From a virus (taxonomy: Duplodnaviria; Heunggongvirae; Uroviricota; Caudoviricetes), in IMG/VR virus record IMGVR_UViG_2657245124_000002, positions 1 to 6,794 of that record: a stretch of 6,794 nucleotides of DNA. One strand, written 5' to 3'. Positions 6,013 through 6,794 of this stretch are shown here, in pieces. The notes under the pieces are model-generated. The model was not told where the DNA came from. It worked only from the letters and a program-made list of their open reading frames with translations, and ran no database searches. The first letter of the stretch is position 1, and each line of letters starts with the position of its first letter. The translations under genes were made by a program, and so were the position numbers.

Positions 6013-6279
6013 GTGCTGATTGGCTATGTAAGGGTATCAACAAATGACCAGAATACAGATCTGCAACGAAACGCTCTTGTTTGTGCAGGATATGAACAAA
6101 TATTTGAAGATAAATTAAGCGGAACAAGGACAGGCCGACCTGGATTAAAATGTGCTTTAAAGCGCCTTCAAAAAGGTGACGCACTGGTTGTCTGAAAACT
6201 GGACTGACTGGGTCACTGTATGCGGCATCTTGTCGTGCTGGTGGTGGAAGCCTAGAAAAAGTATCGGGTGTTGCTGAAC
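6013..6279 (+). pseudogene. pin: Serine DNA invertase of the Pin/Gin/Cin/Hin family, inactivated by in-frame stops and truncated by an IS insertion
   Basis: GGGAGA Shine-Dalgarno, then GTG at 6013. The product VLIGYVRVSTNDQNTDLQRNALVCAGYEQIFEDKLSGTRTGRPGLKCALKRLQKGDALVV carries the resolvase-type catalytic N-terminus. The frame hits TGA at 6193-6195, TGA at 6205-6207 and TAG at 6253-6255, while homology continues between them ([18 protein letters not shown]). Homology ends at the IS boundary at 6280. Confidence 0.85.

Positions 6280-6794
<515 letters not shown>

Follow-up and report, generated by a model that had tools for sequence, protein, structure and literature searches.

Gin of bacteriophage Mu and Pin of the e14 prophage belong to the Din family of Fis-dependent serine DNA invertases. 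In both systems, a 26-bp crossover site lies just upstream of the invertase gene, which occupies the right edge of an invertible segment composed of tail-fibre and tail-fibre-assembly (tfa) genes. Serine recombinases depend for dimerisation on the E-helix, a structural element that lies beyond residue 60 of these enzymes. Invertases can also act on segments of other prophages: the Qin prophage of E. coli K-12 encodes PinQ, which works in trans to invert the P segment of e14 (PMC12529663). The e14 prophage retains its own pin, its inversion has been shown by experiment, and phage defence is influenced by the inversion of tail-fibre DNA in cryptic prophages (PMC12529663). The enhancer of the native Hin system and its hix site are about 100 bp apart (PMC3798978).

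The stretch of DNA analysed here (the window) is the whole of the 6,794-bp draft contig LIVH01000067.1 (GCA_001420045.1), which begins inside the J gene and ends inside an insertion sequence (IS). It carries the tail end of a lambdoid prophage, laid out as a Mu/e14-type invertible tail-fibre cassette. J (49–2907) is followed by a lom gene that lacks its 3′ end (2975–3406), the C-terminal part of a tail-fibre gene (to 3927), two convergent tail-fibre-assembly genes (3929–4456 on the plus strand and 4485–5018 on the minus strand), and a second tail-fibre C-terminal part on the minus strand (5021–5785). An invertase stump and a tfa remnant occupy the plus strand at 6013–6279, and the remainder of the contig is IS DNA. 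Very probably, the region 6013–6279 on the cassette's right edge is a scar without function, generated by a joint between invertase and tfa sequence, by later stop codons, and by insertion of IS629. What the locus has in common with the PinQ/e14 pair is a tail-fibre segment in a prophage that may be oriented by an invertase whose gene lies elsewhere. Whereas e14 keeps a resident invertase, the one encoded here is dead; inversion in trans may have taken place in relatives of this prophage and is impossible in the window itself.

The stump comprises codons 1–77 of a serine recombinase gene of the Gin/Pin family (6013–6244, plus strand), as recognised by Pfam, the Gin structures, and DNA comparison. 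Its reading frame begins VLIGYVRVSTNDQ from the GTG at 6013 and is preceded by 8–12 nt by a likely Shine-Dalgarno sequence, GGGAG (6001–6005, plus strand), which in alignment takes the position of the ribosome_binding_site annotated for Mu gin. An earlier note on this DNA had read the GTG start, the in-frame stops at 6193, 6205, and 6253, and the IS end at 6280 as they are found here, and its identification of an inactivated Pin/Gin-family gene is borne out by both the Pfam match and the structural alignment. It had also considered GTG unusual for this family, but an identical GTGCTGATTGGC opens Mu gin and the invertase gene of Citrobacter phage Shae_phiSM. The GTG and the leader are the same as those of Gin and Pin, residues 1–77 correspond one-to-one to these enzymes, and counting from the GTG yields the Ser9 numbering of the Gin structures. 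The GTG is evidently the native start, as in Mu gin, and no lesion.

The N-terminal catalytic domain and its nucleophile are both recognisable, with Ser9 preserved and aligned to that of Gin. The 60-aa product scores 53.4 bits against the Resolvase profile (PF00239), and reading through the stops raises the score to as much as 67.3 bits over residues 3–82; the match spans only the first half of the domain (profile positions 2–91 of 145). Against the Gin structures 4M6F and 3UJ3, the read-through product aligns one-to-one over residues 1–81 with an E value of about 1e-38 (3e-38 is quoted for residues 1–77). There is no uninterrupted ORF of about 190 aa; stops fall at codons 61 and 65, and invertase sequence ends at codon 77/78. 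Unlike Gin and Pin, the locus encodes 40% of the protein, has no helix-turn-helix, carries stops at W61 and R65 together with R68H and S69C, and is missing the partner crossover site.

The alignment with the Gin family across the first two stops is residue-for-residue. Stop 1 (6193–6195, plus strand) is a TGA in place of TGG and falls on Gin W61 in both the allele and the structure comparison, while stop 2 (6205–6207, plus strand) is a TGA in place of the codon for Arg65 and is present in all five of the joint-bearing loci compared. Arg65 corresponds to the catalytic R68 of gamma-delta resolvase. Both stops are true nonsense changes within conserved invertase sequence. They are accompanied by the missense changes C27Y, D41G, R47C, T57A, R68H, and S69C relative to Gin. 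R47C (codon TGT, 6151–6153) occurs in this window only, which also has an A of its own at 5980.

The stump is a mosaic at the DNA level. Its 5′ part (5938–6203) is about 92–94% identical to gin-type invertase genes, and the megablast match ends at 6203. Unlike Gin, the DNA from about 6204 is nearer to Cin-like invertases such as that of phage vB_EcoM-606R2, with which 23 consecutive bases are identical directly before the joint. The switch from Gin-like to Cin-like sequence coincides with the lesion cluster TGA61, TGA65, R68H, and S69C.

Invertase sequence gives way to tfa sequence at 6244|6245. A base-by-base comparison of invertase, remnant, and intact tfa places this joint within ±3 nt and in frame, and the similarity to the Cin-like gene of vB_EcoM-606R2 reaches 6248 at most in a more sensitive DNA search. 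Full-length Gin used as a tblastn query against the window aligns over residues 1–79 only. Past the joint, the sequence shares 99% identity with the 3′ ends of intact lambdoid tfa genes, beginning at 6242–6245 (OZ040035 position 7457 equals window position 6242). The segment 6245–6279 (plus strand) is a 3′ remnant of a lambdoid tfa gene of the TfaR/TfaQ type, fused in frame to the stump, cut by the IS, and colinear with the final 101 nt of an intact tfa gene. Where the IS is absent, as in OZ040035, the sequence runs on past the IS position with GAAGCCTGGAAAAAGTATCGGGTGTTGCTGAACCGTGTTGATACATCA…, a 30-residue tfa tail, and the corresponding peptide matches positions 105–130 of 131 of the Pfam profile Caudo_TAP (E 3.4e-13). 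The remnant encodes no intact Tfa; it is without the N-terminal ~165 residues, has an internal TAG, and is cut by the IS. Unlike an intact tfa, only the last 30 codons survive (11–12 of them in this window), a conserved Trp is replaced by TAG, and the whole is fused to an invertase stump.

This assignment bears directly on the third stop. The earlier note had seen family homology persisting between the stops and had counted three point inactivations of the invertase. That holds for stops 1 and 2, on W61 and R65, but homology to invertases ends at 6244, ahead of stop 3 (6253–6255, plus strand). Since the sequence from 6245 onward is tfa, the third stop is no invertase codon; by allele comparison it is a change of TGG to TAG in the codon for the Trp of EAWKKY, a tfa motif that lies in the remnant and outside the invertase, and TGG is what HH194M, OZ040035, and intact tfa have there. 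Further along the frame, the next stop (TGA, 6280) is formed by the outermost three bases of the IS.

The tfa tail (…TTGATACATCAACT…; OZ040035 7470–7515, equal to window 6255 onward) resembles Gin residues 88–98, SLTDSIDTSSP (…TTGATACGTCATCT…), by chance. This likeness carries the tblastn alignment with Gin to residue 99 across the joint in IS-free loci. Invertase homology continuing past 6244 was considered on this ground and rejected, as the stretch is 99% identical to intact tfa.

The earlier note had proposed that a full-length pin was hit by three point nonsense mutations and that its 3′ part, helix-turn-helix included, was afterwards lost to the IS. Stops 1 and 2 do replace conserved invertase codons, the IS end abuts the frame at 6280, and the chance resemblance of the tfa tail to SLTDSIDTSSP makes homology extending to Gin residue 99 look plausible. 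As a whole, this course of events is nevertheless very unlikely. What follows 6244 is 99% identical to intact tfa and matches Caudo_TAP, and relatives that have the same stump and no IS are equally without the invertase C-terminus; 538 genomes have the joint without the IS. In a tblastn search for Gin residues 82–193, which include the helix-turn-helix, no significant match was found in the window or in four IS-free relatives, with at least 4–7 kb of downstream sequence included. Because IS-free relatives with the same stump have no Gin C-terminus, the joint and not the IS removed the helix-turn-helix: the missing 60% of the invertase disappeared when the older pin::tfa joint arose. The proposal is refuted in what it says of stop 3 and of the part played by the IS.

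The preferred reading, a scar founded on the pin::tfa joint, also accounts for the surroundings of IS-free loci, in which the stump is followed by a tfa tail of 101 nt, then by a small hypothetical ORF, and then by a convergent gene for a SAM-dependent methyltransferase. The IS-free remnant tails are 99% identical to intact tfa, as in phage PhiR26_1, and a convergent methyltransferase gene follows in both. No joint-spanning match exists among the sequenced phages of the collection searched. Among complete E. coli genomes, a joint-spanning match without the IS is present in 538 of 5,426 (~10%), more than 4,000 further complete genomes match the tfa part only, starting at the joint, and 344 are at least 99% identical to 5786–6279. 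Prophages with the scar occupy no fewer than three places in the chromosome: beside an ompW remnant near trpA/yciE, beside potB/pepT, and beside ybhB/bioA. The scar is a widespread inherited feature and not a product of local decay. The earlier note had attributed the lesions to a cryptic prophage, which fits this contig but not the prophages elsewhere that carry the scar at these sites and retain intact J, lom, stf, and tfa. The occurrence at several chromosomal sites implies that the scar spread when lambdoid phages recombined with one another or through phages whose integrases differ.

The lesions form a nested series across five loci, a sample that is not a phylogeny of all 538 genomes. 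The HH194M allele has the joint and TGA65 only, with W61, C27, and the tfa Trp (TGG) intact. OZ040035 adds TGA61 and C27Y and retains the TGG of tfa, whereas EC958 and 1162invT2 have the lesions of OZ040035 together with TAG81 and two more substitutions. The window allele has TGA61, TGA65, and TAG81 as well as its own R47C and the A at 5980. R68H and S69C are already found in the least-mutated version. This distribution suggests that the joint and TGA65 came first, followed by TGA61 (with C27Y) and then by TAG81. TGA65 is in every joint-bearing locus, so it could predate the joint.

The series also speaks to the quality of the contig. If the stops were sequencing or assembly errors, the gene would be intact in the organism; the window is indeed a short draft contig, and both R47C and the IS junction are without independent support in complete genomes. 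For the stops themselves, this explanation can practically be discounted. TGA61, TGA65, and TAG81 occur in the independent finished genomes EC958 and 1162invT2, and OZ040035 has TGA61 and TGA65 only; the recurrence of the same stops in independent finished genomes therefore excludes sequencing error for all three. Moreover, the gene is without its C-terminal 60% even if the stops are ignored, and RefSeq calls the locus an incomplete recombinase in several NCTC86 assemblies. Its labels in the relatives, these assemblies included, are an incomplete “recombinase family protein” and an incomplete “tail fiber assembly protein”. The finding is one of ordinary prophage decay already annotated in RefSeq.

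Whether the truncated product has a function of its own was also weighed. The 60-aa N-terminal peptide (WP_001421220.1) is named “recombinase family protein” in some genomes and is called as a protein by PGAP in OZ040035; the start codon, the Shine-Dalgarno-like GGGAG, and Ser9 are all kept, as might be expected if it worked as a small protein, perhaps by modulating other invertases. Such a function is extremely unlikely. Missense changes are scattered over conserved positions (C27Y, D41G, T57A, and, in this window, R47C), and one variant stops at codon 65 instead of 61, a pattern that fits neutral decay. The peptide also ends at residue 60 of a 193-residue enzyme, so it is without the E-helix.

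The scar is cut at 6280 by an IS629 isoform of the IS3 family, of which the OrfB-proximal end (6280–6794, minus strand) lies in the contig. Over all 515 bp, this piece is 95.7% identical to the IS629 annotated in Stx phages, and 6280 is the boundary of that element at its OrfB end, in agreement with the earlier note, which had placed the end of an IS3-family element at this position. Terminal sequence and OrfB are thus both present at the at least 95% DNA identity used to assign IS629. The fragment encodes the C-terminal part of the transposase with the Pfam domains rve, rve_3, and rve_2. It represents 515 of the 1,310 bp of IS629 and has diverged by ~4% from the O157-type copy; IS copies at least 99% identical to it are present in other E. 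coli chromosomes and plasmids. The Stx-phage copy used for comparison has a 4-bp target duplication. In the uninterrupted sequence, the insertion point is between CTGAAC and CGTGTT, within the tfa remnant. The IS629 isoform sits in a tfa remnant that was already dead, and nothing functional was destroyed. The adjacency of stump and IS at 6279/6280 is known from one draft contig that ends inside the IS, the stump-IS junction is absent from the complete E. coli genomes searched, and the exact junction is absent from the GTDB representative genomes, which probably include very few Shigella and E. coli.

A single crossover site remains in the window. The right site is a gix/pix-like 26-mer, TTCTCGTAAACCGAGGTTTTAGATAA (5933–5958, plus strand), which is the sole match in the window, where none is expected by chance. 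Its counterpart in alignment is the site directly preceding gin in Mu, where the G-segment boundary is annotated. OZ040035, EC958, and 1162invT2 have two 26-bp sites each, the second being inverted and inside stf. The window has no such inverted pair, the partner having been lost to a deletion that joins lom nucleotide 405 to the interior of the variable C-terminal part of a tail-fibre gene (3379–3380, plus strand) and took out the stf constant part together with the left crossover site. With the left site and most of the tail-fibre gene lost, the invertible segment is therefore frozen; it lacks an invertase, a partner site, and any complete tail-fibre gene. The combination of the lom::stf deletion, the segment orientation, and the stump occurs in no complete genome, and none covers at least 80% of 2800–6279. 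The deletion creates a 143-aa Lom fusion ORF, which is found in a single contig (two samples) in a public collection.

The orientation in which the segment came to rest differs from that of its relatives. Window positions 3460–5964 are 99.1–99.2% identical to the corresponding segment of OZ040035 (4178–6682), of four NCTC86-type records, and of B-2207, but run the other way with respect to J and the stump. This is true of six out of six nearest relatives, all of which have the dead invertase stump. If the scar has a single origin, the inversion came after the death of the invertase. Possible routes are an invertase acting in trans or homologous (RecA-dependent) recombination between long inverted repeats. 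The cassette of OZ040035 is flanked by inverted repeats of 783 bp that are 99% complementary (4178–4960 and 6397–7179) and far longer than the 26-bp sites, and the window retains a 318-bp repeat pair at 90% (3428–3745 and 5182–5499).

The first of these routes would give the stump a role in cis. The stump may be kept for its right crossover site and for a probable Fis enhancer, such as gin, hin, and cin have in their 5′ coding region, so that cassettes of this kind would be “orphan” switches flipped by the invertases of co-resident prophages, by analogy with the action of PinQ on the e14 P segment (PMC12529663). The first 190 bp of the stump are about 92–94% identical to gin-type genes, and the Hin enhancer spacing (PMC3798978) would put an enhancer near 6058–6125, inside the stump. 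The inverted state of the window segment relative to six nearest relatives that all have a dead invertase, and the retention of the stump in 10% of complete E. coli genomes, are likewise consistent with this idea. It is nonetheless rather unlikely. The 783-bp, 99% identical inverted repeats of the relatives allow flipping by homologous recombination with no invertase involved, the three NCTC86-type assemblies compared (two of NCTC86 and one of B-2207) show no difference in orientation, and wide retention can be plain hitch-hiking. The predicted enhancer derives from gin identity and Hin spacing and not from an identified Fis site, and in this window the left site is deleted, which makes the role impossible. 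A role in cis would add to the main explanation, an inherited and decaying scar, and not replace it. If true, it would explain why the cassette is inverted relative to >99% identical relatives that share the dead invertase, the switch having since been destroyed in this contig.

The scar would have originated in an old illegitimate joint, which probably linked invertase codon 77/78 to the last 30 codons (from tfa codon ~165) of a resident lambdoid tfa and would have removed 60% of the enzyme, namely everything from the remainder of the catalytic domain through the E-helix to the helix-turn-helix. The most likely origin of the joint is capture of the cassette in place of the stf-tfa region of a phage with the gene order stf-tfa-methyltransferase, as suggested by that order in one reference phage, PhiR26_1. 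The dead stump would then have gathered neutral changes, first TGA65, next TGA61 with C27Y, and finally TAG81 in the tfa remnant. Changes confined to this strain are R47C, the entry of IS629 into the tfa remnant, and the lom-stf deletion that removed the left site. As a result, recombination is no longer possible, and the segment is fixed pointing the opposite way to its closest relatives. Past the IS, one would expect the other IS629 end (…CCCGGGGCGGTTCA), then (G)AAC repeated over 3–4 bp, and then CGTGTTGATACATCAACTGCACCTGATATTGAGTGG…TAA ahead of the methyltransferase gene.

The locus has little importance beyond its correct annotation, for which it holds two traps. The in-frame fusion and a chance motif likeness (DTS..P) together mimic continued family homology and mislead blastx-based annotation, and an IS that adjoins a truncated gene need not be the cause of the truncation. 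Shared by hundreds of E. coli genomes with prophages at several sites, the nested lesion series could mark the lineage of this tail-fibre module. Flipping in trans of cassettes that have no invertase and retain both sites would bear on the inversions of cryptic-prophage tail fibres.

Two minor observations concern the edges of the contig and of the IS. Both contig breaks (position 1 inside J and position 6794 inside IS629) fall in repeated DNA, and the assembly runs 515 bp into a multicopy IS. At 6275–6284, the IS end TGAAC adjoins the target CTGAAC and produces the direct repeat TGAAC|TGAAC, which could be due to chance or to a preference of the element for targets like its own end.
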